DNA from: a virus
Taxonomy: Duplodnaviria; Caudoviricetes
Virus record (IMG/VR): IMGVR_UViG_3300021961_000097
Coordinates: 1-60,876 of that record
DNA length: 60,876 nucleotides
Strand: one strand, 5' to 3'
The position numbers were made by a program, and so were the translations under genes. Shown here piece after piece: positions 6,209-60,876 of this stretch. A model generated the notes under the pieces. That model saw only the letters and a list, made by a program, of their open reading frames with translations. It had not been told where the DNA came from and searched no databases. Numbering within the stretch: the first letter of the stretch is position 1; every line of letters begins with the position of its first letter.

Positions 6209-6399
6209 ATTCTAATGCCTCCATCCTCACGTCTTGCTATGTAAGTTCTGTTATACCTGTAGCCAACTGCGTTGGCCGCTTTGTACGCTTTGCCGCCTAG
6301 CTTCTCTTCAAAGAAAGCGGACTGCCCTGGTTCCATGTCCACGAAAGGATACTTTCGTTGGCGCGTGGTGCTTGGGACTGGAATATCTTTTTCAATCAT
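6193..6399 (-). CDS. Small putative DNA-binding protein (IEKDIP.P...KYPF..M...IRIWR)
   Basis: Motif recognised from a widespread phage family; GGAG RBS. Confidence 0.75.
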   Translation of the reverse strand: MIEKDIPVPSTTRQRKYPFVDMEPGQSAFFEEKLGGKAYKAANAVGYRYNRTYIARREDGGIRIWRKN

Positions 6400-6424
6400 G
6401 TTGGTTCTCCATTAAAAATTAAAG

Positions 6425-6540
6425 GTCCCCGCGACTCGGCGCCTTGTCTTGTAGGCTGGCGGGAGGCGCACGAGCCGCGAGTAGCCGTGACGTGGCTTAT
6501 GCGCCAGCCGGGGAGTGTGGGAGTAGACCCGGCTGGATTG
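6425..6540 (-). ncRNA. Candidate structured RNA / leader with three hairpins
   Basis: CCAGCCGGG/CCCGGCTGG stem with C-rich loop; short AGCC/GGCT stem; CGCGGCTCG-t-GCGCCT / AGGCGC-CGAGTCGCG stem with a G-U pair on the minus strand. Confidence 0.45.
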
Positions 6541-6544
6541 GTTT

Positions 6545-6643
6545 TTAAAAAATTGCCATTGCCATTGCGAAGATAAAAAGTATCACTGGGGCGACAAGCA
6601 CCCCGGCGATTCCTGCTAAAAGGTTTTTCATGTTGTCGTTCAT
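6545..6643 (-). CDS. 32-aa single-TM hydrophobic peptide (below ORF track cutoff)
   Basis: MNDNMKNLLAGIAGVLVAPVILFIFAMAMAIF; ATGA overlap with upstream stop. Confidence 0.6.
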   Translation of the reverse strand: MNDNMKNLLAGIAGVLVAPVILFIFAMAMAIF

Positions 6644-6975
6644 ATCTCGATCCACTCCCCGCTGTCATTGCGCACTACCGGCACAACCTGCTCGTCGTCG
6701 ACGGCGTTCCTGATTTTGCCGGTCCGCTCGTCTTTGTACTCCCAGCCGTCGTAGGTGCTTACCGATCCGGTGTGGATGTTCATGTACTGCTGGGGCGACT
6801 CCCAGATCACCTTGACGGGCGCGGTGTCCTCGAGCAGGGTGACCTTGATCTGGTCTTTCTTGTCGTCAATAAGCGTGAGGGCGTAGGTCATCGCCTCTAA
6901 TTCGTCCTCAAAAATATCGAGACCGAAGGCCGGGGTGTGTTCCGTGTAGTACGTTACCTGATATTCTGTTTTCAT
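6640..6975 (-). CDS. Hypothetical early protein
   Basis: Start MKTEYQ at ATGA overlap with the upstream gene. Confidence 0.7.
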   Translation of the reverse strand: MKTEYQVTYYTEHTPAFGLDIFEDELEAMTYALTLIDDKKDQIKVTLLEDTAPVKVIWESPQQYMNIHTGSVSTYDGWEYKDERTGKIRNAVDDEQVVPVVRNDSGEWIEI

Positions 6976-7328
6976 GATATGAACCCCAGGTCGAAACTGT
7001 AATGCGGCTCGGTGTACCACTTCGCGTCAGAGTTGCAGATAACCATCGAAGCGCCTATGCCCCACTCGTAGGGACCGTCCTCCCAGGACACCCTCCAGGT
7101 TTTGCCGTAGCCCCTGTACTCCGCTTCTTCAGGGTTCCAAAGCGAGACGTACTTCTCCGGGTCAGGATAATCCCCGCACTCCTTGGCATACTTAACCAGG
7201 GCCTTGTAGAAGGCCTTGGCGGCGCCCGGCGCGCTCTTGTATTTTTTAGGATTAAACTTCAGCTTAATCTTGCGCGGTGTAGTCTCGGGATAGTCCTCGA
7301 ACTCGCTGGTAAAAATTTCAATAGTCAT
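6972..7328 (-). CDS. Hypothetical early protein
   Basis: RBS ACAGGAGAAAGG before MTIEIF; WEDGPYEWG...WYTEPHYSFDLGF. Confidence 0.75.
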   Translation of the reverse strand: MTIEIFTSEFEDYPETTPRKIKLKFNPKKYKSAPGAAKAFYKALVKYAKECGDYPDPEKYVSLWNPEEAEYRGYGKTWRVSWEDGPYEWGIGASMVICNSDAKWYTEPHYSFDLGFIS

Positions 7329-19466: not shown

Positions 19467-19649
19467 CTACCAGGGCCGGACGTATGGAACGTATTTTTTT
19501 CTTAACAACTTGCAAGCGGCCTCCAGGCGCAACTCATCTTTCGGCGTGTTACGGAAGCGGTGCATGCTCAAAGCCCAGTGCATGTTTTTCAGGAACACCC
19601 CAGCAGAATTGCCACGACCAACGATCTTTTTTGCTTCTTCAATTGTCAT
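19467..19649 (-). CDS. Small basic hypothetical protein
   Basis: AAAGGAG RBS, ATGA overlap with HD gene. Confidence 0.7.
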   Translation of the reverse strand: MTIEEAKKIVGRGNSAGVFLKNMHWALSMHRFRNTPKDELRLEAACKLLRKKYVPYVRPW

Positions 19650-20155
19650 TTCAGTTCTCCTTTCTTGCCTCTGATTATACCAGTCAGTATGGCCGTTAAG
19701 CCAGGGTGCGCTTTGGTCATCAGCATGTTCAGCGCCGCTTTTTCTATCCTGTAGGTCTTGTAGAACTCCGGGTCGTATTCCTCCAGCGTCGCCATGTTGT
19801 GGATCGCGTCAGCGATCTTGATGTTGTGGGCGCCAGAAGGGCCGTCGGCAAAGTGACTGGCGTTGACTGCGAATCTACTTTTCCTGTTTTCGATCTCAGG
19901 GCCGGCGACGTTGGTGACGTACTTGACCAGGTTTGCGACGACTGGGCCGAACTCCGCTTCGATCTCTTCCAGGGTGACCGGGGTGTCCTCGACGACGTCG
20001 TGCAGGACCGCCGCCACTATCACCTCCGGCCTTGGGTCAAAAACCCTGACCAGTTCAGCCACCGCGATGGGGTGAGTGATGTAGGGGGCGCCGGTGTATT
20101 TCCTGACCGCACCCTCGTGTGCTTTCGTGGCGAATTTTACTGCTTTTTCGTACAT
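19646..20155 (-). CDS. HD-domain small alarmone hydrolase (Mesh1/SpoT-hydrolase-like)
   Basis: AHEGAVRKYTGAPYITHPIAVA, AAVLHDVVEDT, EIEAEFG..VA.LV..VT, IKIADAIHN. Confidence 0.9.
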   Translation of the reverse strand: MYEKAVKFATKAHEGAVRKYTGAPYITHPIAVAELVRVFDPRPEVIVAAVLHDVVEDTPVTLEEIEAEFGPVVANLVKYVTNVAGPEIENRKSRFAVNASHFADGPSGAHNIKIADAIHNMATLEEYDPEFYKTYRIEKAALNMLMTKAHPGLTAILTGIIRGKKGELK

Positions 20156-20222
20156 CTCTTTCTCCTTTCTTCAACGTAATAATATCAAAACTACGGATAT
20201 TTTCAACTACTTTTTTCTACTT
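20156..20222 (-). promoter_or_regulatory. Early promoter + RBS repeat copy (short variant)
   Basis: AAGTAG-TTGAAA-16-TATTAT with TGn, then AGAAAGGAGAAAGAG-ATG. Confidence 0.8.
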
Positions 20223-21881: not shown

Positions 21882-21955
21882 TTCATTTCTCCTTTCTGTT
21901 AAAGAACGTAAGCATCATTTAACTTACATGCATATTATAGCAAATGGGTTTTTCA
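21882..21955 (-). promoter_or_regulatory. Early promoter (extended -10) + RBS
   Basis: TGcTATAAT (-10 at 21944-21949), TGTAAGTTAA as in other copies, AGAAAGGAG. Confidence 0.65.
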
Positions 21956-36103: not shown

Positions 36104-37510
36104 CTAGTTGCTTTTGTATCCTTGTATATAGTGCATGAAATCTTTGTTGGTAAAGTAAAAAGGTAACGACGGATCAGGCACCCCAGAGTATAGTTTTTTT
36201 GATCCCACAGAGCCTTTAAAAATTACCTCCCAACTATTTAACGTCCATCCTCCAGCATGGGACAACCTATCCAGGCAAACTTCATACTGGGATTGGGGCA
36301 TTTGATTTATTGAAAAATTTTTTAATATTTTTCGTATTTTTTTTATTTGAGAACCTTCTGGGTGTTTTATCCCATAATCTTTCCAAAACGGTGTATCTTC
36401 TCTGGTTGTTAAATAATGGGCGTGGATAAAATTTTTTAATTCTTCTTGATCTTCCTTGACGTATTTATTTATCCAACTAACTATTCTTCCTGCTCTATAG
36501 TTCTCAATGTTTCCTTTTAGCATATCTATGAATAAACTTAAGTAAGATATGGTCTTCCAAATACTTGTGGCTTCTAGTGGTTCTACAAAATGATGTGCTA
36601 AACCACATCCAAAACAATTTTTAACTAATATTTTTTCATGCGCGCCTGGATCAAATTTAAACTCTCTGCTGTCTAGTGGCAGGTCTACACCAAAAGATTC
36701 CTGTATTTCGTAGATGATGTCTTCTTTAGTGGCATAGTTATCATCATATACATATCCCATACCGTACCTGTCTACCACTGGAATTTTCCACACCCATCCA
36801 CTCTTCATGGCTATGGCTTCTGTTCCTGAAATAAAACTCTCATTAGCATCTATTTGTTTAAAAAATGGAATTGCGGCGTTCACTCCTAACACGTCTGAAA
36901 ATGATTTCCATTTAACCTTATAATGTTTTCCTAGTATTTCTCTTCTAAACCCTGAACAATCAAAAATAAAATCTAGTTCAATAGTTTTTTTATCATCAAA
37001 ATGTAATCTTTTAACTTCGCCATTACTTCCGTTTTCTACCCCTACAACTTTTTTATCAATATGCTCAATTCCCCTACTTAAGGCAATTTTTTTTAGGAAA
37101 ACAGCAAAAAGTCTAGCATCAAAATGGACTGCGTAACTTGGTCTAAAAGAAAACTGATCTGGAGGAGGGGGGCCATACGGAACTTTTTTGTTTAAGCACA
37201 TTTGTTCAGCCTTGTGGCTCTGATCATAATTAAAAGCATGAAAGTAAGCAGTACCCTCACCTGCCCAGTTTTTAAACAAGATTCCATACTTTACAGTAGC
37301 CTTACACTCCTTAAATACATCTAAAATATTTATTCCAACACGATCAAAAAAATTTAATATATTAAATACTGTGCCCTCCCCTGCCCCTAAAATACCAATC
37401 TCTTCACTAGCTATGACTGTTATTTTTGTATTAGGGAAACTGGCGTTTACCATTAAAGCGGTTATCCATCCCGCTGTTCCTCCGCCTAGTACGACAATTT
37501 TTTTACTCAT
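36104..37510 (-). CDS. Flavin-dependent halogenase (tryptophan halogenase family)
   Basis: GGGTAGW, GAGEGT, ATVKYGI (catalytic Lys position), FIFDCSGF, GWVWKIP, FVEPLEAT. Confidence 0.9.
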   Translation of the reverse strand: MSKKIVVLGGGTAGWITALMVNASFPNTKITVIASEEIGILGAGEGTVFNILNFFDRVGINILDVFKECKATVKYGILFKNWAGEGTAYFHAFNYDQSHKAEQMCLNKKVPYGPPPPDQFSFRPSYAVHFDARLFAVFLKKIALSRGIEHIDKKVVGVENGSNGEVKRLHFDDKKTIELDFIFDCSGFRREILGKHYKVKWKSFSDVLGVNAAIPFFKQIDANESFISGTEAIAMKSGWVWKIPVVDRYGMGYVYDDNYATKEDIIYEIQESFGVDLPLDSREFKFDPGAHEKILVKNCFGCGLAHHFVEPLEATSIWKTISYLSLFIDMLKGNIENYRAGRIVSWINKYVKEDQEELKNFIHAHYLTTREDTPFWKDYGIKHPEGSQIKKIRKILKNFSINQMPQSQYEVCLDRLSHAGGWTLNSWEVIFKGSVGSKKLYSGVPDPSLPFYFTNKDFMHYIQGYKSN

Positions 37511-37521
37511 TATATTTAAAC

Positions 37522-38244
37522 TTATTTTTGTTTATGATATGAGCCTGTGAAACAATGATTGGCATGTCTAATACGATCTAGCATCATAGGATCATTTGGA
37601 GACACTGAACTTACATCTATTTTTAACTTGACGTCTTCTAATGGCACAAAATGACAAATAGGAGTTCCTGCCTTAATAAGAAACTCTTGTTCTTCTTCTT
37701 GTTTTTTTATAAACAAATTAACCATTACTTGGGTTACTTTATAAAAATTTAGTACACCTGGTAAAATTTCTAGTCCCTGTAGCGCAACAACTTCCCATGC
37801 TGGTTTTAATGCTAAGAATTCTAACGATCTATCTGTGCTAAACGTCCAGGGAGTGACTAACTTTATTTGAAGATATTCTTTATCTGAAACCATAGATGAA
37901 TACTGATTATATGGATGACATTTAATTGAACTTTGTGCATCTGCATATTGGTACTTCCAGTAATCTTCATTTCTTGGCCCAACTCTTAGATATAAATCAG
38001 ACCACATTGGAACCATAATACCTTTTTTATACAAGTCAATTCTGCCAGGGCAATGCCTTATATTTTTAATAGATTGTTTTTTGTCTGCAAGTTCTCTAGC
38101 TATATCAATTGAAGATGGAGCAGGTAATTTATTTACCCAATCAGGTATTTTTGGCTTTGACGGGGCATAAAATTTATGAATGCCGTTGTTGTATAGTGTA
38201 TAGGCTTTTACAACTACAGACTTATTTTTAAAAATATTAATCAT
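37522..38244 (-). CDS. Hypothetical protein, possible dUTPase-like beta-clip fold
   Basis: RHCPG...VPMWSD, KLVTPW, ILPGV, IKAGTPICHFVP; start uncertain. Confidence 0.65.
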   Translation of the reverse strand: MINIFKNKSVVVKAYTLYNNGIHKFYAPSKPKIPDWVNKLPAPSSIDIARELADKKQSIKNIRHCPGRIDLYKKGIMVPMWSDLYLRVGPRNEDYWKYQYADAQSSIKCHPYNQYSSMVSDKEYLQIKLVTPWTFSTDRSLEFLALKPAWEVVALQGLEILPGVLNFYKVTQVMVNLFIKKQEEEQEFLIKAGTPICHFVPLEDVKLKIDVSSVSPNDPMMLDRIRHANHCFTGSYHKQK

Positions 38245-38245
38245 G

Positions 38246-38830
38246 CTATTTAAATCCCCCAAAGCAAGCTATTGAGTATCTTCCTAGTCCTTTTCCTTGA
38301 TGCTTTTCTTCTAGGGATATTTCTTTTGCTTGATGTTTCATCCAGCTTTGAAAAATATACGTTGTGTTAAAACTACATTCTAAGCATTTATCAAAATCCT
38401 CAAAATATAAATCTCCACCTACAAATTTTTTTGGTTGTTGAAATAGAAAAGTTAAAAACGTAAGAGAAGCAAGATCAACGTGGCTTTTATATCCTTGTTT
38501 ATTTTCATAATAATTTAATAACGTACTGTCATAATTTAAATTGTTTAAATTACGAAAACATAACGGCATGGTTCTTACATCTATATTAAATAATTTCCTG
38601 TTGTATCTAAGAATGCAAGACGTATTTCTATCAACATATAAAGTATCTAAAAATATTCCCTTGCCTGTTTTGGCCTCACGGAAGCTGTTTGTCTCTGAGG
38701 CATCTAAAAATTTATTTGTAAGACATAAAAAATTTAATTCTAAATTAATATCTGATAACTCTTCTTTTGTGTAAGTATTATCTACTTTAATAACTTTGAA
38801 ATCTTTGTCTTCGATTAGACTAATGTCCAT
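38246..38830 (-). CDS. 2OG-Fe(II) oxygenase
   Basis: YKSHVD, GGDLYF, H...RYSI. Confidence 0.85.
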   Translation of the reverse strand: MDISLIEDKDFKVIKVDNTYTKEELSDINLELNFLCLTNKFLDASETNSFREAKTGKGIFLDTLYVDRNTSCILRYNRKLFNIDVRTMPLCFRNLNNLNYDSTLLNYYENKQGYKSHVDLASLTFLTFLFQQPKKFVGGDLYFEDFDKCLECSFNTTYIFQSWMKHQAKEISLEEKHQGKGLGRYSIACFGGFK

Positions 38831-38836
38831 AAACTT

Positions 38837-39079
38837 TTACTTTATAATATGATTGTTGTGTATGACGACTGTATCTGTACCAGCATAAAAGGTAAGAAAT
38901 CCAATACAAGCTATGTTCCAATCCGGCCCAGTTTGTTCTGACCATGACGGGACATTTATTGAAACGTGTCTAGCTAAATACTCTTTCTGATTGTTTTCAA
39001 ATACACGCCAAACATGATCTATGGTACCTCTATTGGGTTCCCCCCTGCTTTTGTTAAAGCGGATATGGTATTTATTCAT
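38837..39079 (-). CDS. Hypothetical protein
   Basis: IRFNKSRG...HVWRVFEN...WNIAC. Confidence 0.75.
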   Translation of the reverse strand: MNKYHIRFNKSRGEPNRGTIDHVWRVFENNQKEYLARHVSINVPSWSEQTGPDWNIACIGFLTFYAGTDTVVIHNNHIIK

Positions 39080-39082
39080 TAT

Positions 39083-39478
39083 TTATTTTTCATTTGGGGC
39101 AATAGGCCAAGTGACTTTACTGGGATACCCCGGCTGTTTTTTTACGTCACGCAATTCTTTGCGGTACTTAATCCATTCTTGCTTTTCTGCAATAGTCATA
39201 GGCACGTCGGATAACATGGCCCAATCACTTTTAAGTAGGTAATCTTTTATTCGTCTGTCCAGATGGTCTTTTTCGGTAAGAGGGGGCGGGGGGTCAGGCA
39301 CTTCAATGTCGGTTTCAATCCATGCCAAATTAGGAAGGTTTACCCAAGACAAGTCGGATAATCTATCTTTAACACCGTGCATACCAAAAATTGGCCCCCA
39401 TTGATCCGGCAATAGCACCGGATCGTTTAGTGGGGTATTGGTAGTTTTATCAATTAATTGCCAGAGTTTTCTGGGCAT
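39083..39478 (-). CDS. Tail fibre assembly chaperone-like protein
   Basis: LLKSDW..LSDVP.....EWIKYRKELRDV..QPGYP..VTWP..P. Confidence 0.8.
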   Translation of the reverse strand: MPRKLWQLIDKTTNTPLNDPVLLPDQWGPIFGMHGVKDRLSDLSWVNLPNLAWIETDIEVPDPPPPLTEKDHLDRRIKDYLLKSDWAMLSDVPMTIAEKQEWIKYRKELRDVKKQPGYPSKVTWPIAPNEK

Positions 39479-39723
39479 TGTGTATTTGGGAAAAGCGAAA
39501 ACATTTTTTGTACGAATTCAATATCATGTGGCATAACTATTACATAGTGGTAAGTACCGTCATCTGTTCTCATACCCACCTCATAACATCCATTAAATGT
39601 AGTGCCTATAACCAAACTTCGGCTTCTAGTAAGATTGGACTTTATAGCATTAAACCCAAATTTTTTTTCTAACTCTAAAAGTTCTGGGGGTCTTTCTTGC
39701 TTTAGTTTATCTTTTTCTTTCAT
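39454..39723 (-). CDS. Hypothetical protein
   Basis: Tiles between Gly-rich gene and chaperone. Confidence 0.6.
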   Translation of the reverse strand: MKEKDKLKQERPPELLELEKKFGFNAIKSNLTRSRSLVIGTTFNGCYEVGMRTDDGTYHYVIVMPHDIEFVQKMFSLFPNTQCPENSGN

Positions 39724-39724
39724 A

Positions 39725-40678
39725 TCAGAACGGACACCATGAAATAGTTACACTCCCACCGGGAGGCACTGTCACTGGATAACTGCCAGCCCCTCCTAAC
39801 GGTTGACAACAATAGCTAGTTGGCGTACCTGCGCTACCAGCACTGCCCGGATTTCCAGCAGTTCCGTTACCCCCCGCGCCACCGCCGCCGCCGCCGCCAG
39901 ACTGCCCTCCAGGTGCAGTGTAGGTACCATTTACTGGGTTGTAGCCCGTCCCACCGGAGCCGCCATTTCCACCTCTTCCACCTTGTCCAGGGTTAGTATA
40001 TGGTGTTTGTCCTCCGGTTCCACCGGCGGTGCGAGTTCCAGCATTTGCTGGGTTATTTCCAGTTGAAGGATTTCCACTGGCCCCAGCGCCGCCACCCGCA
40101 CCCGGAATCAAACCTCCTGATGGCTGGTCTTGCCAAGCACTTCTTCCGCCGCCACCGCCGCTACCGCCATTTCCTGCTGATCCACCGGAGCCTCCTACAC
40201 CTCCTGGCCCCCCTGGAAAACTTAATGGAGTAGGCAAGCAAGCAATAGTCGTGGCTGTTCCCGTGCTTCCCGTGCTTCCTGTATTCCCAGCACTTCCTGC
40301 TTGGCCCGTACCGCCACCGCCACCATAATTATTATAGGTGTAACTATATCCGTTCATGCCAGCGCCGCCACCGCCACCGTTTCCAGCCCCAGGACCCACA
40401 CCTGCTAGACCGCTTGCGCCGGAGCCACTATAACCCCACTGAAGGTAGCCATAAGTGGGACATCCCCACTGAGGAGTGCCGCCACCGCCGCCGCCACCGC
40501 CGCCACCGCCGCCACCGCTATTACCACTGCTACCCGTGTCTCCTGCTCCACCAACGCCTGTGGCGTTAATTTTTTGGAGGCCAGAAGGAGCGACAAAAGT
40601 GCCCGGTGAAGTAAAGACTTCACATCCGCCGGGAGTTTCGCCTCCCATAACACCAATTCGAGAAGTTCCTATAGGCAT
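39725..40678 (-). CDS. Glycine-rich fibre-like virion protein
   Basis: FTSPGTFVAP.G...GVGG N-terminus, poly-Gly runs, GSVTISW C-terminus; chaperone gene nearby. Confidence 0.75.
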   Translation of the reverse strand: MPIGTSRIGVMGGETPGGCEVFTSPGTFVAPSGLQKINATGVGGAGDTGSSGNSGGGGGGGGGGGGGTPQWGCPTYGYLQWGYSGSGASGLAGVGPGAGNGGGGGAGMNGYSYTYNNYGGGGGTGQAGSAGNTGSTGSTGTATTIACLPTPLSFPGGPGGVGGSGGSAGNGGSGGGGGRSAWQDQPSGGLIPGAGGGAGASGNPSTGNNPANAGTRTAGGTGGQTPYTNPGQGGRGGNGGSGGTGYNPVNGTYTAPGGQSGGGGGGGAGGNGTAGNPGSAGSAGTPTSYCCQPLGGAGSYPVTVPPGGSVTISWCPF

Positions 40679-40712
40679 TTTTGTGTCCCCTAGAGGTTAA
40701 ATATAGAACATA

Positions 40713-41333
40713 TCATATATAAAGCCAGCCCGTTAGTACATATTTGGCGACGTTCCCATAGACTGGATTTCCTCGATGAGGATGAGTATACGTTGCAGGC
40801 CAAAAAATTATGGTATTTTCTTTAGGGGTTACCCTGAATTCTTGTCTTATAAATTCAGTTTCTCCACAATTTTCAGCGGCAAGAGTATTTAAATATGCTA
40901 GGAACACTACATATCTGCTAGGTTCGTTTGGGCCTTTTTCTGAATGCCAAACATGATAACCGCCGCCCGGCATGGTTTTTTGTAGCTTGATTGCGGAAAG
41001 TCTTAAATTTAGGCTTTTAATGTCACCGTAAGCTACTTTATCCGAATATAAGCAAAAAGAATTTCTCAACCCATCTTCAATGTGAGGTTGCCAATGTTCT
41101 TGAGTGCCTTGGTTGTTATACAAATGAAATAGCCTAGAATCTAATTCGGAATAGTGCATACATACAGATAGGTCATCTTTAATATTTCGTGGACAATTGT
41201 CATTGACTTGTCTATCAACCATTGTATTTTCTGCTTGAAGAAAATCTATCGCTTTAACTAACTGCGGACATACATAAGGGGGGAAAACATTTTCTATAAT
41301 CCCTATGTCTCCTTTGTAATTTATTAATTTCAT
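40713..41333 (-). CDS. 2OG-Fe(II) oxygenase (prolyl-4-hydroxylase-like)
   Basis: QKTMPGGGYHVWHSE, YLN, GETEF, WPATYTHPHRG, KYVLTGW. Confidence 0.9.
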   Translation of the reverse strand: MKLINYKGDIGIIENVFPPYVCPQLVKAIDFLQAENTMVDRQVNDNCPRNIKDDLSVCMHYSELDSRLFHLYNNQGTQEHWQPHIEDGLRNSFCLYSDKVAYGDIKSLNLRLSAIKLQKTMPGGGYHVWHSEKGPNEPSRYVVFLAYLNTLAAENCGETEFIRQEFRVTPKENTIIFWPATYTHPHRGNPVYGNVAKYVLTGWLYI

Positions 41334-41938
41334 GAAAATGGCCTACTACCGTTGACCCAACAAACTAAAGATTGCCTTTCCCCAGATGTTACTGGAGTAA
41401 CTTTATGTACCAAGAACGAAGGGAAAAACACAGCCAGCCCTTTTTCTTTTGGTATTTTTTCTTCTTTTGAGCCTCGCATAAAAAGAAATTCTCCACCCTC
41501 ATATTCGTTTGGATCATTTAGCTGTAAGGCAACACTAAGTTTTCTAATTGGTCCTGATCCACAGTCCATGTGCCAATTGTAGTTTCCTTTTTCATTTCCT
41601 TTGTAGTTAGCTAATTGTATTGGCGCAATATGCGAAAGTTCATATTTAAAAAACTCTTCATTAATATTTTCTACATATTTTGCAATACGCTTAAATACCC
41701 ATTCACTTGTTTTTTCACTTTTTAAAAAATGTACTTTACTTATTCTTATTGTTTTTTCTAACCTGCCTTCTCCTTTCTTGCCGCCAACAATTGCATCTGA
41801 ATGTGCCTGCTTGGCAACATTAGCTAAATAATGTAATTCTTCTTGGTTAAAGATATCTCTTTCTATGTAAAAGCGTGTTGCGTCTTCTTGCTGTTTTACG
41901 GATAGCGCATAATGGCCTTCATCTTTCATTCGGAGCAT
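41330..41938 (-). CDS. 2OG-Fe(II) oxygenase (PKHD-type)
   Basis: YNWHMD, RKLS, YEGGEF, FPSFLVHKVTPVTSGERQSLVCW. Confidence 0.92.
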   Translation of the reverse strand: MLRMKDEGHYALSVKQQEDATRFYIERDIFNQEELHYLANVAKQAHSDAIVGGKKGEGRLEKTIRISKVHFLKSEKTSEWVFKRIAKYVENINEEFFKYELSHIAPIQLANYKGNEKGNYNWHMDCGSGPIRKLSVALQLNDPNEYEGGEFLFMRGSKEEKIPKEKGLAVFFPSFLVHKVTPVTSGERQSLVCWVNGSRPFS

Positions 41939-41941
41939 AAA

Positions 41942-42514
41942 TTATTTTTCATTTGCAGTTATTATAAAATGTAAAAATTTTACCTCTGACTGCGGTTGGC
42001 CTCCTGTAAACTGATGAGGCAACCAGGAATTAAAGATAAACAAAGAACCTGGAATTATATTATTAAAATGAATATGTAAAGTAGAATCATTAATCATTTC
42101 AGAAGGTAACGCTGGTATGTCTCCCATTTGTTTTCCTGGTCTTGGGTCACCAAAAATAGGATATGGACAATTTTCAGTGGTTTCTAAAATATAAAAACCG
42201 CTAAATATACTATTCCCATGAACATGGATGTGATGGTGCGCAGGAGCAGTAATTTTTTGCCCCCATATAGTAGTTGATTTAATTTCGTATTTGTCTACTT
42301 GATAGCCACCATCGCCCAAAATATCAACAGCAATTGATTCTAAATGTTTTTTAAAATTAAAAAAATTTGAATTGTATGCCAGATTCTCACTTTGCAGGAG
42401 AAGATTCTCTGGAACATGGTTTTTGTCCCAGAGTTCTTCAATTTTAAATGTATTTAGCCATTCCGGTTCTTCTTCTCGATGTATTGCAGAAGGAAAATAA
42501 TGAAATGTCTGCAT
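41942..42514 (-). CDS. Putative 2OG-Fe(II) oxygenase (HxH type)
   Basis: HIHVHGNSIFSGFY, DPRP, FNSWLPH. Confidence 0.85.
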   Translation of the reverse strand: MQTFHYFPSAIHREEEPEWLNTFKIEELWDKNHVPENLLLQSENLAYNSNFFNFKKHLESIAVDILGDGGYQVDKYEIKSTTIWGQKITAPAHHHIHVHGNSIFSGFYILETTENCPYPIFGDPRPGKQMGDIPALPSEMINDSTLHIHFNNIIPGSLFIFNSWLPHQFTGGQPQSEVKFLHFIITANEK

Positions 42515-52946: not shown

Positions 52947-55286
52947 TTACCCTTTGGGAGCGTATATTCGTTCTCTTGCCACGTCTGCACGCTGATCAGC
53001 GATCTTTTCTTGGGACTGGATGCGTGCTTCATCTGATTCCGCATTTTGCTGTATTCGCATCTGCTCGTTGGCAATCTGCTGTTGCTTGATCTGAGCATCG
53101 GCCTGGTCTTTAGCCGCACGTTGCTGAAGTTCTTGCTCCTTCAACTGAACAATCGGGTCGGCCTCTGGCGCCCCAGACAATTCCGTCTGCATTGCTTTTG
53201 CTTCCTGGAAGTATTGCGTTACCTTCAGGGCAATCAGCGCCTCTCTTTCAAGGTCTGAGATCATGTTGTCTGGGTCGGTGCCGTATTGCTGGAACAACTC
53301 GGCCTCGGCGTCTTCTTCCGCCTTCAACTTAATGTGCTGAAGGACATGCTTTTGAAGTTCAGTTGCCGCCATAGGGTTGGCCTGTATCATTGGAGACAGT
53401 CCCATAATCAAATGCGCGGCAATGTGCGCGTCATGTTGCTGGCCGGCAAAGGCTTTTAGTGCCATCCCGTCTACAACATTAATATTTTCAGTGGCTGGAT
53501 CGACCGGCATTTGATTGGTCTGCACCTTCAAAATACCGTCAATATCGCGCACGTTTAGGGCTTGATAAACCCGGTAATACGCCTCATACATGTTGTGCAT
53601 CTGAGGCGCGCTCTGAGCCAACTGAAGCTGGGTCTGCGCCAACGTAATCCGCTGGGCCGCAGAGAAGATATTGGGGTCTGCCATCGGCAGAATCGCCACC
53701 ATATCGTCAAAATCTTTCTTTTTGATTGATCTGGAAGCACCCGGTACGTCGTATGGATACTCGTCAGGCAAGAAAAGCCCGAATCCTTCCGCCAGCATCT
53801 CAAATTCTTGCGTCTGGGCGTAATACAGGCGCTTGTGAATGGCAGACATCACCATAGAACCACGTTCCAACAGCGCAATCGTTGTTCCTACCGCCGCCTG
53901 CTGGTTTCCGTCCCCAACCTGCATGTCTGCGATGCTGGCAAGACGTCTTCCGGCCTCTACAGTGAAGCCCAGGAGGGTAAACAGGGTCTGAGACGGCTCT
54001 TTGTAGGGCAGGGGAAGCAAAGAACCGCTAAGTTCGGCGCCCCCAGCGTCAATGTCGCGCCATTCGCCGGGTTGAATCGGGTTATCATCGTCCGCAATAC
54101 GCGCACCCTTGGCTTTGAAGCCGGCGGGGAGGTTAGATAGGGTTCCAGCGTCCAATAATTGGCGCAATGCCATTGTTGCAGTCTTGGAAAGGCCACCAAT
54201 CAGGTGAACAAAGCCCAAACCGTAGGCTCCGGGACCTTCTACCAGGACATAGTGGACAAAATACTCTCTTCTGCACTTGTATTCGTCATCTTCCAGCCAG
54301 TTACGGCGCACTCCGACGATCTGGCCGCTGTTTTCGTCCAGGGTAACAACGTAAGGTAGCTTAATTCCGGTCGGTTCGCCCCCGTCATCCACGTCCTCAA
54401 AGCCAGGAATGTCCAAATTAACCTGGAATTCCAGCAAAAATATTTCTTCTGGCTCCCCGGACGGCTCCAGACCAGTAATTCGGTCAATTGAATAGCGAAT
54501 TCTGTCGCCATTTGTCGGGTCATTCTCGGGATCAACAACCACATCAAGGTATTCACCGGCCACAACGCGCTTTCTGAACTCATTTTCGTCCATAGAAATG
54601 CGGTGAGTAATGCGCGGACACTCAGAAATGACACTCGAACCGTTGTAGGGGATGTATAAATCGTCCGGCAGGACAAGCCTGGAGACCATGCGGCCCAGTT
54701 GCTCGTCATAATAGACCTTTTTAAAGGTAGAACCGCCGTATCCGGTGTAAAAAAGTAGCTGATCAAACTCCGGTGTATACTCTTTCATCACCGTTGTGAT
54801 CTGGTAATTCATGAAATCCTGTACACGGGCGGCCTGCTGGACCTTGTCCAGGGTCTCTTTGCCCAGAGTCTGGGTCCTGACTGGCCCTCCGGCAGGCATC
54901 AGTTCCTTAAACGCCTGCGCCTGGAACTGGACAATGGCCTCGGTGAGCATAGGGTGAACTGCACCAGCGGCGCCACGGAACGGGCGGGTTCTTTCCTCAA
55001 TCTTGAGGCCAAGCAATTCCAGCCCTTTGGAATACATCTGCTCCCAGTCACCACGCGACGCCTTGTCGGCATCAAACAAGGCCATCAGGTCATTGGAAAT
55101 ATGGGACATGTCCTGCGGATCAAGGACTTCAGCCAGGTTGCTGTAAAAATCTACGTCGTTTTCTTCTGCAACTTCAACGGTCGCACCGCCGTCTTCCTCC
55201 AGGACAATCTCAATATCCGGCATTTCCTCGTCAATCATGAGGATTTCCGTGGCAGGTGCAAGATTAACGACTTTATCGACTGGCAT
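52947..55286 (-). CDS. Portal protein
   Basis: Size and position; HPMLTEAIVQFQA, FKKVYYD, YGLGFVHLIGG, LRQLLDAGTLSNLP; coiled-coil C-terminus. Confidence 0.9.
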   Translation of the reverse strand: MPVDKVVNLAPATEILMIDEEMPDIEIVLEEDGGATVEVAEENDVDFYSNLAEVLDPQDMSHISNDLMALFDADKASRGDWEQMYSKGLELLGLKIEERTRPFRGAAGAVHPMLTEAIVQFQAQAFKELMPAGGPVRTQTLGKETLDKVQQAARVQDFMNYQITTVMKEYTPEFDQLLFYTGYGGSTFKKVYYDEQLGRMVSRLVLPDDLYIPYNGSSVISECPRITHRISMDENEFRKRVVAGEYLDVVVDPENDPTNGDRIRYSIDRITGLEPSGEPEEIFLLEFQVNLDIPGFEDVDDGGEPTGIKLPYVVTLDENSGQIVGVRRNWLEDDEYKCRREYFVHYVLVEGPGAYGLGFVHLIGGLSKTATMALRQLLDAGTLSNLPAGFKAKGARIADDDNPIQPGEWRDIDAGGAELSGSLLPLPYKEPSQTLFTLLGFTVEAGRRLASIADMQVGDGNQQAAVGTTIALLERGSMVMSAIHKRLYYAQTQEFEMLAEGFGLFLPDEYPYDVPGASRSIKKKDFDDMVAILPMADPNIFSAAQRITLAQTQLQLAQSAPQMHNMYEAYYRVYQALNVRDIDGILKVQTNQMPVDPATENINVVDGMALKAFAGQQHDAHIAAHLIMGLSPMIQANPMAATELQKHVLQHIKLKAEEDAEAELFQQYGTDPDNMISDLEREALIALKVTQYFQEAKAMQTELSGAPEADPIVQLKEQELQQRAAKDQADAQIKQQQIANEQMRIQQNAESDEARIQSQEKIADQRADVARERIYAPKG

Positions 55287-55343
55287 TGGGGTGCCCTCTA
55301 ACTATTCTGAGGCCATTATACATGGCATTTTTCATATATCTAA

Positions 55344-55380
55344 TGCTATAATACCCACGATTCAGAAAGGAGACTAAATC
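55344..55380 (+). promoter_or_regulatory. Extended -10 promoter and early-type RBS for the plus-strand gene
   Basis: TGcTATAAT at 55344-55352; AGAAAGGAGA at 55364-55373. Confidence 0.8.
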
Positions 55381-55626
55381 ATGAGAATCATGGAATACAT
55401 ATCTTGGGACAAGCGCCCCGCTGTTCTCTGCGCTATCGAAGCACCTACGCACCCAGAAGGTGAGTACGTCGAAGCCTACTTCATATCCTCCACTTCGCCA
55501 ACCTGGCAAAAAGCCATCCCGGTTCAATTCGTAGATATCCTACGGGAAGGCCAGGTTCTGGAGCAGGCGGACTTTGAGGAAATGTTCGGCATCATAGGCG
55601 ATACGCTCCCGGAACTTCCGGTTTAA
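55381..55626 (+). CDS. 81-aa acidic protein, only plus-strand gene; candidate immunity/antitoxin
   Basis: Own promoter and RBS; fills the gap between giant gene and portal; stop codons overlap at 55623-55626. Confidence 0.8.
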   Translation: MRIMEYISWDKRPAVLCAIEAPTHPEGEYVEAYFISSTSPTWQKAIPVQFVDILREGQVLEQADFEEMFGIIGDTLPELPV

Positions 55627-58600
55627 ATATACCGCCTGTCATTCTGAACCCTCTCGACGTTGCCGCCACGCTTGAAGTATTTAGGGGGAGGGCCGGGATC
55701 AATCAAATGCTCTGGGCTTTCAATGGGTCGCGTCTTTGGTTTCTTGGCTAATACTAACGGACCTATTTGAATAACCTGTTCTGCGTCAGCCACTGGCATG
55801 CCATCTGACTTACGATAGAAATAGCTATGCCTAAACGGATTCATGCCGACTTCTACCCAGTCGTCTGCGTCAGGCGCAGTGCCGTCTAGGATACTTTTAG
55901 CCATCTGCTCTACTTCTGCCGGGTCCATGTTTTTCCATGCACCCTGCATTCGAGCAATAGTTCCCTTGGAACTTTTCCCGGTCGCCATGTTTAATGCCGC
56001 TTTAGCATTGGATGTAAAGGCCACATTATCTAGTATGGCTGTTGGTCCATACGCCAAGGCGTTGCCACTCTTAGTGGTGCCATCATGAAGTGTAACGACC
56101 CAAGTGTCATTTCTTTCATACGCAGGGATGTCTAGTCGAGAAGAGATCATTGTGCCGTCTGGAATATCTATGTTGATGCCCACTATGCCAGCAGACCTCA
56201 TTTCATTTTTGTCTAGCGCAAGGGCGATGGTTTCGGCTGTTGCCATTTTAGGGACTTTGCCTATAGGAGTAATAGGCATCTTGTCTTCAACTACTTTGTT
56301 ATATTCTTGAGTAGTTATCTCGCCGTTTTGGAGTTTTTTTGCCGCGTCTTGAACTTCAGGCAATGGCTTCTGCTTAACGCCTTTGTGGGTTTTTTGGTAG
56401 GAATCTACCTGTTCTTTGGTGATGCCTAGCTTTTGTCTGGCGTCACCAAGGTTACCGCCAAACTGCTCAAAAGTTATTTTGCCTTTTTTGCCTGTTCCGG
56501 CGTTGGCGACTGGGCCTGTTGTGGCATCTCCTCCATCGACAGTGGAGTCGGTATCTTTGATAATCCCCTTAACGCCTGATTGAAGCGTTCCATCGGGGTT
56601 AATGTCTTCAAATTGTCTTGCTGTTTCATCTAATTTTCTCCTGTCTACTCCAGGCAACGTATACCAGGGAGTGTCTGTTGCACTGGTTACTTTAAATCCT
56701 TTCGGTACTACTTTATTTTTTGGCTTTTTAATAAAAGCCTCAAACTCTTTTTGTCTTTGAGGACTCATTCTAACAATTGATCCATCAGATAATGGATACT
56801 CGTAATAGGTCCCCTCTTTCCCGCGCCTATACGTTGCACCAGAAGAGAATGTCCTTCTCTTGCCTTCGGTAACACCTGCACCTAGCGGATCGCCGCTCTT
56901 AACTGATTTTAGGGTGCTGTGGGATACAGGTTGATTACCGGACACTAGCCAGGTTTCCCAGTGCATGCGGCCCAGGCTGGCGTCTTGCGGACGGCCTATT
57001 ATGTCATAGGCTTCTTTAGTAGCATCTTGAAGTCCGTTCTCCAACATTTCTGTAACCAGGAGACCGCGAGGACCAATAAGGATTCCAGATAGTCCGCGTT
57101 TTTTTATTCCATCATAAATATTGGCGCCGCCAAAACGACCGTCGTCCCAAAGATTTCTTGATTGAATTCTATCCATAACAAGCAGATCATCCTTTCCAGC
57201 CACAAGCCCCAGGAATGAAATAACCTTGTTATCTATTCCTGGTTTATTTGTTACTTCGTAGAACGACCTGCGGAAATCTTTCCCTGTCTTAGTTGGGTCA
57301 GCAAGTAAATTATGCAGGGTTACCAGTCCGCTACTTCCGTTTTGGCCTTTTTCACTTAGCTGACGCAATAGATTACCGGCGGCGTTTGCGTTCATGGTAA
57401 CCTGCTTGCCTGGGGAACCTTCTGGCAAGCTATTAGCAACCATTTGTTCCCAGGCCGGCATATCGGCCTCGGTCAATGTGCCTTTCACCGCCTTATCAAT
57501 AAATGGCGTTGCTTCGTCCAACAAATCAATAAATGCGCCTTCCTGCTGGAAAGGACCGGCTCCCCTCGAGAGAACGCCCCACAGGAACAGCCTGCCTGTC
57601 ATATCCGGTGTGGCCTGTCCGCTGTTATATACATTTTTAATCTCTGAAACGTATCCAAAGCCCTCGTCTGCGCTGGCCTTCATGTCTGGGCTTAGTTGCT
57701 TTAGCTTTTCTGCCAACATTCTTGGGTCGTTGGCGTACTCAATCGCCCTGAATGGAGGCGCCGGCACATAATCCCCGCCAAACACATTCTTTTCAAAATC
57801 AACCCAACTCTGGGCAGATTTCATAGCATTAGGGTAGGCTTGGATAGCCTCGTTTATGTTTGCCATGACCGCCGCTCTATTGGCTGGCGTAAAAGTTTGA
57901 ATCACGGGGATAAGCGGTTTATTACCTCCGCCAAAAACCAAAAGTTCCCTGGGTAACGCGTGCCCGACCGCGCCCTTTGGCGCCGCTTTTATTTCTATCT
58001 CGCCCAGCATCCGAGCAGAACCGGAGACTGGCTCATATCCTATTTCTCTCAGTATTGCTGGATCGGCCTGGTCTGCCGCTTGGTTATAAAGTCTAAGCTG
58101 GTCTGCTTTGGCTTGCCTGTATCTAAGCACTTCGCTTGGGGGCATCCGTTGCTCTATGTTTTCCATTCCATAAAGTTTTTCAAAGTTTCTTTCCAATTCG
58201 TATAGTTCATGGCCTCCGCCAGGCATGTCCTTCGTCCTTGAAATTTCTGGCGTCATAATCTGTAATTCGCCCAAAACTTTTTCGCCATTCTGTCCGACGT
58301 ATTGAATAGCAACCTTGCGGTCAAAGTAGCCGTTGCCTGGAATCCTGTTCCAACCCTCGTCGATTATCGCCAGGTCTTTTGAAAGCATAGATACGATCTG
58401 ATCCGCCTGCTCATTCGTATTAACCAGCATAGTTCCGCGAATAGAGTCCGGTATCTCCCCTGGCAGTAGGCTCTTGCGGACTAACTTGTCACTAATGCTC
58501 TTCAGCTTCTTGACCGGGCCGGCCTTGTACTCAACCCCAACGTCCGTTGCAATGCTCATCAATAAATTCTGAAACTCTGGATCAACGGTATTGGCAAGCT

Positions 58601-60572
58601 GGACCAGTTGTTCTGCGCTACCAATATCAGCTTGGTGACGTTTAAAGTCCGTTTCAAGTTGAGGAATGTCTGCCTGCGATATGTCTCTGACTCGTGTTAT
58701 ATTGCCGGGCTTGAATGTAAACTTTGCCGCCTTACTAGCCTGTTTTCCGGGGACGCCGGGGATAATGCCTGACATAGATAATGCCGACATTTCCCTGTAC
58801 ATTTTAGCCGCCTCAAAATCACCAGCGGCTTCTGCCTCAATAGCCATTTGGGCCAGATTGGATGCGTCTTTAACTGCGCGATACTGCGATATACCAGGCG
58901 TCATATCTAACATAAAACCTACCGGGTCTTCCTTGGCCCCTTCGTACATTGCTTTCCCAACAGTGGTTACGTCTTGACTGAATGTCTTCAGCGGCTCATC
59001 GCCCTGTATGGTTTCTGTCGCGTAGTCAGCTACTGTGCCTGGAATCTCAGCAAGACCTCGTAACATGGCCTGGGCTTGATTGCGCTTATCGTCTTTAACA
59101 ATGGTTGCTGGGCTATCCCAAATGGGGCTTTGGCCCTGCTTCTCTGTCAGATAACGCGCTTGGCGCTCTCCGCCGCTGGTCAGCCAGGAAAGGAACTGGC
59201 TGGCAGGTGACTGGCGCTGAGACCAATCTACCGTGCCTTCCTCGGTCAGAGGATAGTCAGCGGTAACAGGCATCCCAGAGTCCAACCGATTAAGCATTTG
59301 GGCGCTTTCGGTTTCTGGGGTAGCCGGTTCTTCAGCTACCCCTTCAGTTTTTTTTACGGGGCCACCTTCGGCAAACATATATGCGCCGCCTAGCGTGATG
59401 TCCTTTGGCGTTACGGGACCGCCTGCAATGCGTGTATCCGCCTGTTCGTACCTCGGCATTCCGGTCACCGGGTCAATGGTGTAGTAGTTGTAAGTGCCGT
59501 AATTTTGCGCACCTGCTGGCTGATTTCCAGCAGGTGATGCTGGCGGGTTTACAGGGGACCCGCCTGCATTCGAGGGAGTAGAAGTGTTCCACTCGCTAAA
59601 TGCTGACTTAAACGCCTCCTTATTTAACGTGTTACCGGGTCCTTGGAAGTCATTAGCACGAAGCCGATTGCGCCAGTAATTGTACTCAGCGAAATTGTAG
59701 GGCCTGTTTGACTCTCTAAAGGCATTCATCAACGCCCTGTCTTGGTCTGCGCGGTTCTGCGCATATACCTGAGAATAAGATGGCCGATAACCTCCATAAG
59801 GAGAACCCGTGCCTACATCAAGCAACTGCCTTGGCCTGCTGGTCACCACCGGCGGGGTCCAACTCAGGCCAGAGCCTGTAGCAGGAGTCAGACGCGCCGC
59901 CGGGGTGTACCTATATCCTGTGGGTGAACCCGTCAGCGGGTCAAACTCTTCTGTGCCGGGAATACGTTTCCTGACCGGAGATTCACGGAATGCCGTATCA
60001 AGTCCCGGCGTTGCCGGATTGATCGGACCGGGTTGGTAGACTGTGGAATCAGTTAGCGGACCTTTAGGCGTCGTGGCTGTCTGCACATCAAACAAGATGC
60101 TCGGGTCAATCCCGGCGTTCATCATGTCTTGGAACGTCACGCCGTATTGTGTCGCCGCTCTCTGCAACCGACGGCGCTCTTCCGGGTCAATGCCGCCCTG
60201 CTGTAACTTGTTCACCAGCGCAGTTCCACGGGCAATCGCCGCCTCACGCTCCTGCGCCGTCAGGTCAGCCAATGAAGATTTTGCCGTGGTAGGCGCAGTG
60301 AACTGCTCAACGGGGATTGGCGCTTGGGCCGTGAACACCTGATCAATAGTCGATTGCTTTACGCCTGCATCCAACATGTCCTGAACAGAGACCCCTGATT
60401 CAAGCATCTGGTTATACAGTTGCGCTCCAGTGCGCTTTTCAGGATTCGCTAGGAATTTTTGTTCGGCGGCAAGGATTCTCTGCTTCTGCTTTTCGCTGAT
60501 GCTTCCGCCTTTAGCCATTTGAATAGGAAGGCTGGCTAACATTTCACGGGCTGACATTGCCATGGTGTTCAC
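55623..60572 (-). CDS. Large polyvalent virion-associated protein with RelA/SpoT-like nucleotidyltransferase and HhH-GPD-like domains
   Basis: Between TerL and portal; KKLKSISDK..IPDSIRG..NGYFD..GELQIMT..GHELYE; PGIDNKVISF..G.DDLLVMDR; RLDIPAY..GMNPFRHSYFY. Confidence 0.8.
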   Translation of the reverse strand: MNTMAMSAREMLASLPIQMAKGGSISEKQKQRILAAEQKFLANPEKRTGAQLYNQMLESGVSVQDMLDAGVKQSTIDQVFTAQAPIPVEQFTAPTTAKSSLADLTAQEREAAIARGTALVNKLQQGGIDPEERRRLQRAATQYGVTFQDMMNAGIDPSILFDVQTATTPKGPLTDSTVYQPGPINPATPGLDTAFRESPVRKRIPGTEEFDPLTGSPTGYRYTPAARLTPATGSGLSWTPPVVTSRPRQLLDVGTGSPYGGYRPSYSQVYAQNRADQDRALMNAFRESNRPYNFAEYNYWRNRLRANDFQGPGNTLNKEAFKSAFSEWNTSTPSNAGGSPVNPPASPAGNQPAGAQNYGTYNYYTIDPVTGMPRYEQADTRIAGGPVTPKDITLGGAYMFAEGGPVKKTEGVAEEPATPETESAQMLNRLDSGMPVTADYPLTEEGTVDWSQRQSPASQFLSWLTSGGERQARYLTEKQGQSPIWDSPATIVKDDKRNQAQAMLRGLAEIPGTVADYATETIQGDEPLKTFSQDVTTVGKAMYEGAKEDPVGFMLDMTPGISQYRAVKDASNLAQMAIEAEAAGDFEAAKMYREMSALSMSGIIPGVPGKQASKAAKFTFKPGNITRVRDISQADIPQLETDFKRHQADIGSAEQLVQLANTVDPEFQNLLMSIATDVGVEYKAGPVKKLKSISDKLVRKSLLPGEIPDSIRGTMLVNTNEQADQIVSMLSKDLAIIDEGWNRIPGNGYFDRKVAIQYVGQNGEKVLGELQIMTPEISRTKDMPGGGHELYELERNFEKLYGMENIEQRMPPSEVLRYRQAKADQLRLYNQAADQADPAILREIGYEPVSGSARMLGEIEIKAAPKGAVGHALPRELLVFGGGNKPLIPVIQTFTPANRAAVMANINEAIQAYPNAMKSAQSWVDFEKNVFGGDYVPAPPFRAIEYANDPRMLAEKLKQLSPDMKASADEGFGYVSEIKNVYNSGQATPDMTGRLFLWGVLSRGAGPFQQEGAFIDLLDEATPFIDKAVKGTLTEADMPAWEQMVANSLPEGSPGKQVTMNANAAGNLLRQLSEKGQNGSSGLVTLHNLLADPTKTGKDFRRSFYEVTNKPGIDNKVISFLGLVAGKDDLLVMDRIQSRNLWDDGRFGGANIYDGIKKRGLSGILIGPRGLLVTEMLENGLQDATKEAYDIIGRPQDASLGRMHWETWLVSGNQPVSHSTLKSVKSGDPLGAGVTEGKRRTFSSGATYRRGKEGTYYEYPLSDGSIVRMSPQRQKEFEAFIKKPKNKVVPKGFKVTSATDTPWYTLPGVDRRKLDETARQFEDINPDGTLQSGVKGIIKDTDSTVDGGDATTGPVANAGTGKKGKITFEQFGGNLGDARQKLGITKEQVDSYQKTHKGVKQKPLPEVQDAAKKLQNGEITTQEYNKVVEDKMPITPIGKVPKMATAETIALALDKNEMRSAGIVGINIDIPDGTMISSRLDIPAYERNDTWVVTLHDGTTKSGNALAYGPTAILDNVAFTSNAKAALNMATGKSSKGTIARMQGAWKNMDPAEVEQMAKSILDGTAPDADDWVEVGMNPFRHSYFYRKSDGMPVADAEQVIQIGPLVLAKKPKTRPIESPEHLIDPGPPPKYFKRGGNVERVQNDRRYI

Positions 60573-60604: not shown

Positions 60605-60876
60605 TTAATAATACTCGGGGACAACTCCAGCGTGATCAGTCGGTTCATCAATCTCGTCCGATCCAAGCGCGATGAAATTGCCTGCTCGGAATCTCATGAG
60701 TGCCTGCGTCGTGCTATCGACCAGGTCGTCGTTGTCGCCATTGGGGAACGCCGCGCATTCCTCGATCACTTCATCCGCCCAGTCAGTGTCCGGTGCCCAC
60801 ACCATACCCGACTCGAGTATCGGCGCAACGGCATTGGCCCTCGAGACCTTGTCCTGGCCAGCACGACGACCGCCAG
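60605..60876 (-). CDS. terL: Terminase large subunit, C-terminal end
   Basis: EECAAFPNGDNDDLVDSTTQAL; in frame with 1-1365. Confidence 0.95.
   Translation of the reverse strand, partial: GGRRAGQDKVSRANAVAPILESGMVWAPDTDWADEVIEECAAFPNGDNDDLVDSTTQALMRFRAGNFIALGSDEIDEPTDHAGVVPEYY
60719..60876. repeat. Terminal overlap with 1-158
   Basis: See 1-158. Confidence 0.97.

Follow-up and report, generated by a model that had tools for sequence, protein, structure and literature searches.

In this study, we show that a gene for an acidic protein of 81 aa, wedged in on the plus strand between the portal gene and the gene for a 1649-aa protein of a marine phage, is strictly linked to the RelA/SpoT-type alarmone synthetase (SAS) domain of that giant protein, and that the two form a unit. 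The DNA in question, hereafter the window, is a virus record of 60,876 bases in which nearly all long ORFs lie on the minus strand. Based on sequence comparisons, structure models and the analogy with described systems, we consider it probable that the 81-aa protein acts as an immunity protein, of the Tis1/IapK kind, against an SAS domain delivered by the virion, and that it is expressed from a host-type promoter of its own.

The 81-aa gene (P0001) was found at positions 55381..55626 of the plus strand, within the 336-nt gap between the 1649-aa gene and the portal gene. It starts with ATG, and its product, with 14 aspartate and glutamate against 5 lysine and arginine residues and a pI of 4.23, is indeed acidic, as stated in an initial annotation of this DNA. 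The same annotation had the stop codon overlapping that of the giant gene, and both stops have the TTAA at 55623-55626 in common. It also called this the only plus-strand gene of the genome, which is plausible: in a greedy tiling all other plus-strand ORFs fall within minus-strand ORFs, some of which have Pfam matches (terminase, cell-wall hydrolase, DNA polymerase) or the common ribosome-binding site.

The two expression signals that the initial annotation had placed upstream of the gene were both recovered. The motif scan identified an extended -10 motif, TGCTATAAT, at 55344..55352 (+); it has no -35, which is why a two-hexamer scan listed no plus-strand promoter before the gene. The very same 9-mer stands in front of the early block, at 21934-21942 (-). 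The motif TGNTATAAT is present in four copies in the window against 1.39 expected, and because 3 of 100 shuffles reached four, the extended -10 motif alone is not beyond chance. The Shine-Dalgarno sequence AGAAAGGAGA at 55364..55373 (+), 7 nt before the ATG, is an exact match to the word used in the early cassettes. Twelve exact copies of it are present in the window, ten on the minus strand at 7.9-21.9 kb, one at 41769 (-) and, as the only plus-strand copy, the one in front of the 81-aa gene; with one mismatch allowed, 25 matches were found against 5.4 expected, a number reached by none of 100 shuffles. By sequence likeness only, the promoter of the gene would be of the early type. The non-coding stretch of 410 nt at the head of the early block also contains, upstream of the promoter of that block, an imperfect direct repeat in two copies of about 50 nt (about 22117-22069 and 22020-21971, -), both with a run of T behind them.

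The block 55309-55386, which comprises the promoter and the ribosome-binding site, is nearly invariant in three lineages, while the flanking coding DNA has diverged in them. A strict extended -10 motif lies at most 70 nt upstream in 10 of 29 distinct homologues as compared with 1.2% of background windows, an enrichment whose p-value is overstated because the 29 homologues are related. Homologues with a leader have strong Shine-Dalgarno sites; another 14 have no leader, and in nine of these the ATG is preceded at 6-7 nt by a TAnnnT hexamer, a layout of the leaderless type. The invariant block also contains a sigma-70-like site facing the portal gene, TAGATA-16-TATAAT at 55315..55342 (-; 10/12 matches), back to back with the plus-strand promoter. 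The inserted cassette may in this way bring its own predicted promoter for the downstream late genes.

The giant gene (55623..60572, -) lies between the terminase gene and the portal gene (52947..55286, -); the latter is divergent from the 81-aa gene, matches PHROG 1216 at 1.2e-34 and shows 73% DNA identity to the portal gene of phage DSL-LC04. The frame of the terminase large subunit (1-1365 and 60800-60876, -; 491 open codons when joined) runs off base 1 and goes on for about 25 codons at the other end; since it crosses the record ends, the record is circularly permuted, though labelled linear. Genes resembling those for a tryptophan halogenase (one gene, Pfam 2.4e-87), 2OG-Fe(II) oxygenases (four genes) and a sulfotransferase (one gene) were found among the structural genes, an auxiliary cargo (36104-42514 and 4073-4738, both -) that is unusual for a phage of such size.

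No Pfam family was matched by the 1649-aa protein at E<=0.1, hence neither MuF nor ART-PolyVal, LPD38 or ddrB-ParB, and the whole protein had no significant match among PDB sequences. A module map drawn against relatives shows that the gene is a mosaic: residues 868-1333 are 65-69% identical in five relatives that are SAS-less (L021, L033, L042, L044 and L082), and residues 1363-1649 recur in many other relatives. It is thus a large multi-module protein beside packaging and head genes, with modules that are shuffled between relatives, and from its sequence we assign the giant SAS-carrying protein to the class of polyvalent proteins. In the window the SAS domain is internal, with 805 residues after it, and in several relatives it is C-terminal, with 2-32 residues to the stop; the SAS-carrying proteins that are paired with a homologue of the 81-aa protein have between 446 and 1668 aa. 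A K-x-F-x-x-G-G-x-V motif is present near the C terminus of the giant protein, and a like motif directly follows the SAS domain in relatives.

The SAS domain comprises residues about 620-870 (57963..58715, -; HMM core 58041-58715). With Pfam RelA_SpoT (PF04607) it scores 14.1 bits (E 0.058), which is below the gathering score of 27. A profile of eight sequences, searched against the PDB, matched the GTP pyrophosphokinase 2be3 at 8.9e-6, 3l9d at 2e-3, RelQ at 4e-3 and Tas1 at 0.11. The AlphaFold2 (AF2) model of the domain (pLDDT 89.2) gave 55 Foldseek matches at E<=0.001, with SAS1/RelQ at 4e-7 and Tas1 at 2e-6, and all named ones are RSH enzymes. In VIA-align, 8vx3_B, an exported Streptomyces SAS, and Tas1 tied for the top rank at Z 14.3, followed by RelQ and RelP (Z 13.2-13.6), CapRel (11.9) and FaRel2 (7.2). 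From the searches and the model we conclude that the fold of the domain is that of an SAS. Across 24 diverse sequences, eleven residues do not vary (K688, K696, D709, R712, D738, G748, R752, G763, E769, H788 and R795), and these presumably represent the synthetase (Syn) motifs. As the Z scores of Tas1 and of (p)ppGpp-making SAS enzymes are tied, they do not tell the possible products, (p)ppApp, (p)ppGpp or pyrophosphorylated tRNA, apart, and that the domain is toxic is assumed from its relatives. The SAS profile matched 1665 representative proteins of up to 5090 aa at E<=1e-3. Thirty of these relatives were scanned, of which 17 have Pfam matches and 13 have none; the families are ddrB-ParB (7), ART-PolyVal (5), RelA_SpoT (5), LPD38 (3), Phage_Mu_F (1) and others.

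The SAS, an HhH and the C-terminal domain of the giant protein had all been named as possible partners in the initial annotation, and it is the SAS domain that the homologues of the 81-aa gene track, in every locus with the gene that reaches far enough. At least 596 related contigs of viruses were found in the scan anchored on the portal gene, of which we took the best 80; we set aside 10 of these 80 loci, which have less than 500 nt upstream, leaving 70 that were assessable. In 59 of these 70 loci, 3-167 nt (mostly 9-11) separate the upstream giant gene from the portal gene and no 81-aa gene is present; the other 11 have a gap of 275-336 nt with an antisense homologue of the 81-aa gene. The SAS domain is encoded in 10 of these 11 loci, the remaining one, L009, being cut off, and in none of the 59 assessable loci that lack the 81-aa gene, 17 of which have a complete upstream gene. 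With the 81-aa gene as the anchor, a match to the domain HMM was found adjoining it in 40 of 43 contigs, the other three contigs ending 88, 135 and 1483 nt past the gene, and with the SAS domain as the anchor the 81-aa gene was found in 19 of 21 contigs, the other two being cut off. This is the position of a Tis1/IapK-type immunity gene, which is encoded beside an Apk/RSH-type toxin domain. In all 59 loci showing both, the 81-aa gene and the SAS gene lie on opposite strands, tail to tail.

Comparisons between close relatives agree with these counts. The locus L008, with a portal gene 97% identical and a C terminus 80% identical, lacks both partners, and the window and L009 have the 81-aa gene; likewise L075 is without both, and L072 and L074, at the same portal identity, are with both. 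The C-terminal domain is not the partner because L008, L011 and L012 have it without the 81-aa gene: the C-terminal 290 residues are 77-80% identical in these three loci, where the gap is 11 nt, and this candidate was rejected. As for the HhH domain, no distinct one was found in the giant protein, which gave a trace match to a 5'-3' exonuclease SAM-fold domain at E 0.16. The 81-aa protein and the SAS domain also diverge together, with a Mantel r of 0.86 over 35 distinct pairs that was reached by 0 of 2000 permutations. A tblastn search of 50,697 GenBank phage records matched neither the 81-aa protein nor the SAS domain, so that no cultured phage among these records carries the pair.

Since the 81-aa gene always travels with the SAS domain, its product is most likely the antidote of that domain. 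The initial annotation had proposed an immunity or antitoxin function against a toxic domain of the giant protein, with expression that does not depend on late transcription; this proposal fits all findings, with the SAS domain as the one that is tracked. In VIA-align, Tis1 (6ox6_B), the immunity protein of the (p)ppApp synthetase toxin Tas1, ranks first of 48,161 representative PDB chains, and first also among Foldseek's top 994 chains, with a weak Z of 3.9 (rmsd 3.7 A over 60 residues, 18% identity) and with many unrelated rows within one Z unit. Foldseek of the 81-aa model against the PDB gave nothing significant (Tis1 at E 1.3), and the family profile matched no PDB sequence, Tis1 included. 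Notably, both partners have their best matches in chains of one PDB entry, 6ox6, namely Tas1 (Z 14.3, tied top) and Tis1 (Z 3.9). Prediction of the complex between the SAS domain and the 81-aa protein scored 0.15, 0.34 and 0.00, which gives no answer, neither for nor against. A point against an immunity function is that in the known cases of this kind the immunity gene runs in the same direction as the toxin gene, which the 81-aa gene never does. The analogy with polymorphic toxins, drawn in the initial annotation, is an imperfect one: an adjacent partner gene is indeed present, but it is convergent rather than downstream on the same strand, and the toxic domain is internal.

In a mechanism of this kind, of which we infer the binding, the inhibition, the packaging and injection, the timing and the product of the enzyme, the 81-aa protein would bind the SAS domain as its cognate immunity factor, as Tis1 and IapK do. 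The giant gene would be read together with the late genes and the 81-aa gene from the opposite strand; with its own extended -10 promoter and a strong ribosome-binding site, the inhibitor could therefore precede and accompany the synthesis of the giant protein and would protect the producing cell from toxic alarmone or a loss of ATP through the synthetase. Should the giant protein be packaged and then injected, as has been proposed for polyvalent proteins, inhibitor made early might switch the enzyme off again, a step with which the early alarmone hydrolase described below may help in this genome, and it might also blunt copies injected by superinfecting kin. A more far-reaching proposal, which we put forward tentatively and regard as possible rather than probable, combines three claims: that the phage injects an alarmone synthetase within a giant capsid-borne protein and stalls or rewires the host at entry, that the enzyme is then turned off through a timer of two early products, a Tis1-like blocker and, here, the hydrolase, and that the gene of the blocker lies opposite the toxin gene, in about one-third of the variants wholly inside the toxin's frame. 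With toxin and antidote on the two strands of one DNA, the two would therefore be inseparable by recombination.

The same co-occurrence data would be expected if the 81-aa protein were a partner of the SAS domain other than an inhibitor, that is an activator, a specificity subunit, a chaperone for folding or packaging, or a sensor that releases the enzyme, since they do not tell inhibition and activation apart. A need for chaperones has been described for full-length type VI secretion system (T6SS) effectors of the Apk kind in passages of PMC10083569, which lends this alternative some weight. However, no chaperone-like family match was found for the 81-aa protein, its top structural match is, with the weak Z score given above, an immunity protein, and an acidic single-domain protein of 81 aa with an independent strong promoter fits the pattern of immunity proteins. 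We therefore hold a non-inhibitory partner to be unlikely.

Two genes that are physically linked in one recombining cassette would be expected to co-occur and co-diverge as well, and our counts come from few independent lineages, about a dozen groups by arrangement or sequence. The 81-aa gene could accordingly be a moron, with a role in anti-defence or exclusion for instance, that is unrelated to the SAS module and rides in its recombination cassette. Like a moron, it forms an insert of 336 nt with a promoter of its own, placed between two late genes where most relatives have a gap of 9-11 nt, and the pair is physically adjacent in many loci. Small acidic early proteins are often anti-defence factors. 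However, neither partner was found without the other in any assessable locus, and the linkage holds over at least four architectures, in which the pair persists whether the domain lies 2-32 or 284-808 residues from the stop. Searches of PADLOC, PHROGs and Pfam found no family for the 81-aa protein that would point to such cargo, and we give this explanation a rather small chance. An immunity function for the SAS domain is thus the reading that we prefer.

The 3' ends of the 81-aa gene and the SAS gene always overlap, by -1 to 307 nt, and in 10 of 29 distinct variants the SAS frame is open through the whole antisense of the 81-aa gene and stops 4 nt before the ATG of the portal gene. In these variants, going by the reading frames, the 81-aa gene is nested antisense in the tail of the SAS gene; in L094, for example, the SAS gene occupies 5910-7250 (-) and the 81-aa homologue 5980-6216 (+), and the others are L093, L095, L096, L105-L107, L110, L116 and L141. 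The third codon positions of the open antisense frame coincide with those of the plus-strand ORF. The constant overlap of the 3' ends, together with the lack of a convincing terminator between the convergent 81-aa and 1649-aa genes of the window (fold z-score -1.66) and the back-to-back promoter-like sites in the invariant block, would be consistent with RNA as the main product and the peptide in a secondary role; convergent plus-strand transcription would then act, by collision or antisense pairing, on expression of the portal gene or on the 3' end of the giant mRNA. However, strong purifying selection on the protein and its confident fold indicate that the peptide matters, so that regulation by RNA might be an added layer, and as a replacement for the peptide we judge it very improbable.

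The selection and fold data also establish that ORF 55381-55626 is a real, constrained gene. Its dN/dS is 0.09-0.16 in three close lineages, and differences at codon positions 1, 2 and 3 number 39, 21 and 119 in eight independent close pairs. A single-sequence search gave four clusters of homologues at 83-91% identity, and a profile search extended these to 25 protein clusters of 74-97 aa that form one family. An alignment of 29 sequences shows invariant W9, G27, W42, F65, F69, G70, G73 and L79 and a conserved C-terminal FEExFGxIGxxLPxLP, and start and stop are at identical alignment columns in all members. Two close homologues of 92 aa, P0002 and P0004, are without the stop, and in these the C-terminal PELPV motif is repeated after an 11-residue extension. 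AlphaFold2 predicts a fold of a beta-sheet plus helices with a pLDDT of 94.4 and a pTM of 0.82. Searches of Pfam, PHROGs, NCBIfam and PADLOC assigned the protein to no family; the ESM Atlas gave scores of 0.76 or less only, and in BFVD nothing was found at E<=0.001, the best match being an unnamed 73-aa protein at E 0.02. The view that the ORF is not a gene and that its conservation mirrors the opposite strand, for which the open continuation of the SAS frame on shared third positions in those 10 variants could be cited, has hardly any standing, as that frame has stops in the other 19 of 29 variants, the window among them, the plus-strand translation is conserved better (BLOSUM62 3.11 as compared with 2.37 per column), position 2 is less variable than position 1 in the plus frame (21 as compared with 39, p 0.027), and the constant start and stop columns and the pLDDT of 94 speak against it as well. 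Given the better conserved plus-strand translation and the closed minus frame in most variants, the plus-strand gene is the primary one.

A small alarmone hydrolase (HD_4) of 169 aa is encoded in the early region at 19646..20155 (-), preceded by a copy of the common ribosome-binding site at 20161-20170. It matches Pfam HD_4 at 1.3e-18; in the PDB it matches hydrolase domains of SpoT/Rel at 8e-19, while 7smg, a (p)ppApp hydrolase, is matched at 1.6e-8. It may be another antidote, one that acts as an enzyme. The idea of a third partner that is always present was rejected, since the hydrolase is absent from five related records, of which two are 96-100% complete and both SAS-less, and the sole SAS-bearing one is 82% complete; one distant relative of the hydrolase was found in viral contigs. 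For the Apk2 toxins of prophages, passages of PMC10083569 and PMC12226406 describe Tis1-like genes as always present and hydrolase genes as variably present, and the constant 81-aa gene and the sporadic hydrolase seen here match this pattern, as far as it is set out in those passages.

A close published counterpart is the Apk2-IapK-Aph1 system of MuF polymorphic toxins in temperate phages, which, according to the same passages (PMC10083569; PMC12226406), also comprises a synthetase domain of the RelA/SpoT type on a head-module protein, a constant immunity protein that is small and not an enzyme, and a small alarmone hydrolase that is variably present. In contrast to Apk2, the carrier in the window lacks a MuF domain, and this mosaic protein of 1649 aa is encoded upstream of the portal gene; Phage_Mu_F was detected in 1 of the 30 distant relatives. 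MuF toxins have an N-terminal MuF domain and a C-terminal toxin, followed by an immunity gene on the same strand, whereas the SAS domain in the window is internal and the putative immunity gene, rather than being the next gene of an operon, is convergent and has a predicted promoter of its own. The hydrolase gene lies 35 kb away in the early region, no sequence similarity of the 81-aa protein to Tis1 was found, and no integrase was seen among the 53 proteins scanned.

A similar comparison can be made with Tas1 (Apk1)-Tis1 of the Pseudomonas aeruginosa T6SS (PDB 6ox6), where a delivered synthetase is likewise accompanied by an immunity protein of about 76-81 aa. There, delivery is by the T6SS via a PAAR domain and the genes are co-directional, whereas here delivery would presumably be by the phage capsid, the genes are convergent and the match to Tis1 is the weak one described above. 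In the toxSAS pairs FaRel, PhRel and CapRel (PMC7229694, PMC11782079), too, the product of a small gene next door neutralizes a toxic SAS, and phages encode some such pairs. These, however, are bicistronic, stand-alone toxin-antitoxin operons that serve defence or addiction, while the SAS of the window is a module of a giant protein from the structural region, and its gene and the 81-aa gene do not form a type II operon of two genes on one strand with a stand-alone toxin. CapRel and FaRel2 are also structurally further from the SAS domain of the window, by the Z scores given above. The 81-aa gene resembles phage morons in being an extra gene with its own predicted promoter between two late genes, but no terminator was found, and unlike free-standing cargo it goes together with one domain of the gene next to it.

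With the polyvalent proteins the giant protein shares the mosaic structure and the place beside packaging genes, and its SAS relatives carry the ART-PolyVal, LPD38 and ddrB-ParB domains. Passages of the founding paper on the class (Iyer et al. 2017, PMC5512222) name RelA/SpoT among the phage-type modules and propose that the proteins are injected with the DNA. PMC5512222 contains 0 occurrences of 'immunity protein', and a dedicated antidote gene for a polyvalent module is not described in it; likewise, no described immunity gene for the RelA/SpoT module of polyvalent proteins was found in literature listings, abstracts and some passages. The pair differs from known Apk-Tis1-Aph cases in its non-MuF polyvalent carrier, its putative immunity family, its strictly convergent and sometimes nested layout and its independent promoter.

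Polyvalent virion proteins have been described as multi-domain weapons that are injected with the phage DNA, and the protection of the cell that serves as the factory is not addressed in those passages of PMC5512222. If our favoured reading is true, one module of a polyvalent protein would have a dedicated antidote gene, and this from a family without a name or a Pfam model. The strictly convergent and sometimes fully nested layout of the two genes is in itself an unusual genome architecture. The pair and the hydrolase could reveal alarmone synthesis as an entry weapon of phages with a built-in off switch, and the Apk-Tis1-Aph logic would then extend beyond the MuF toxins of prophages and T6SS effectors to uncultured marine and estuarine phages.
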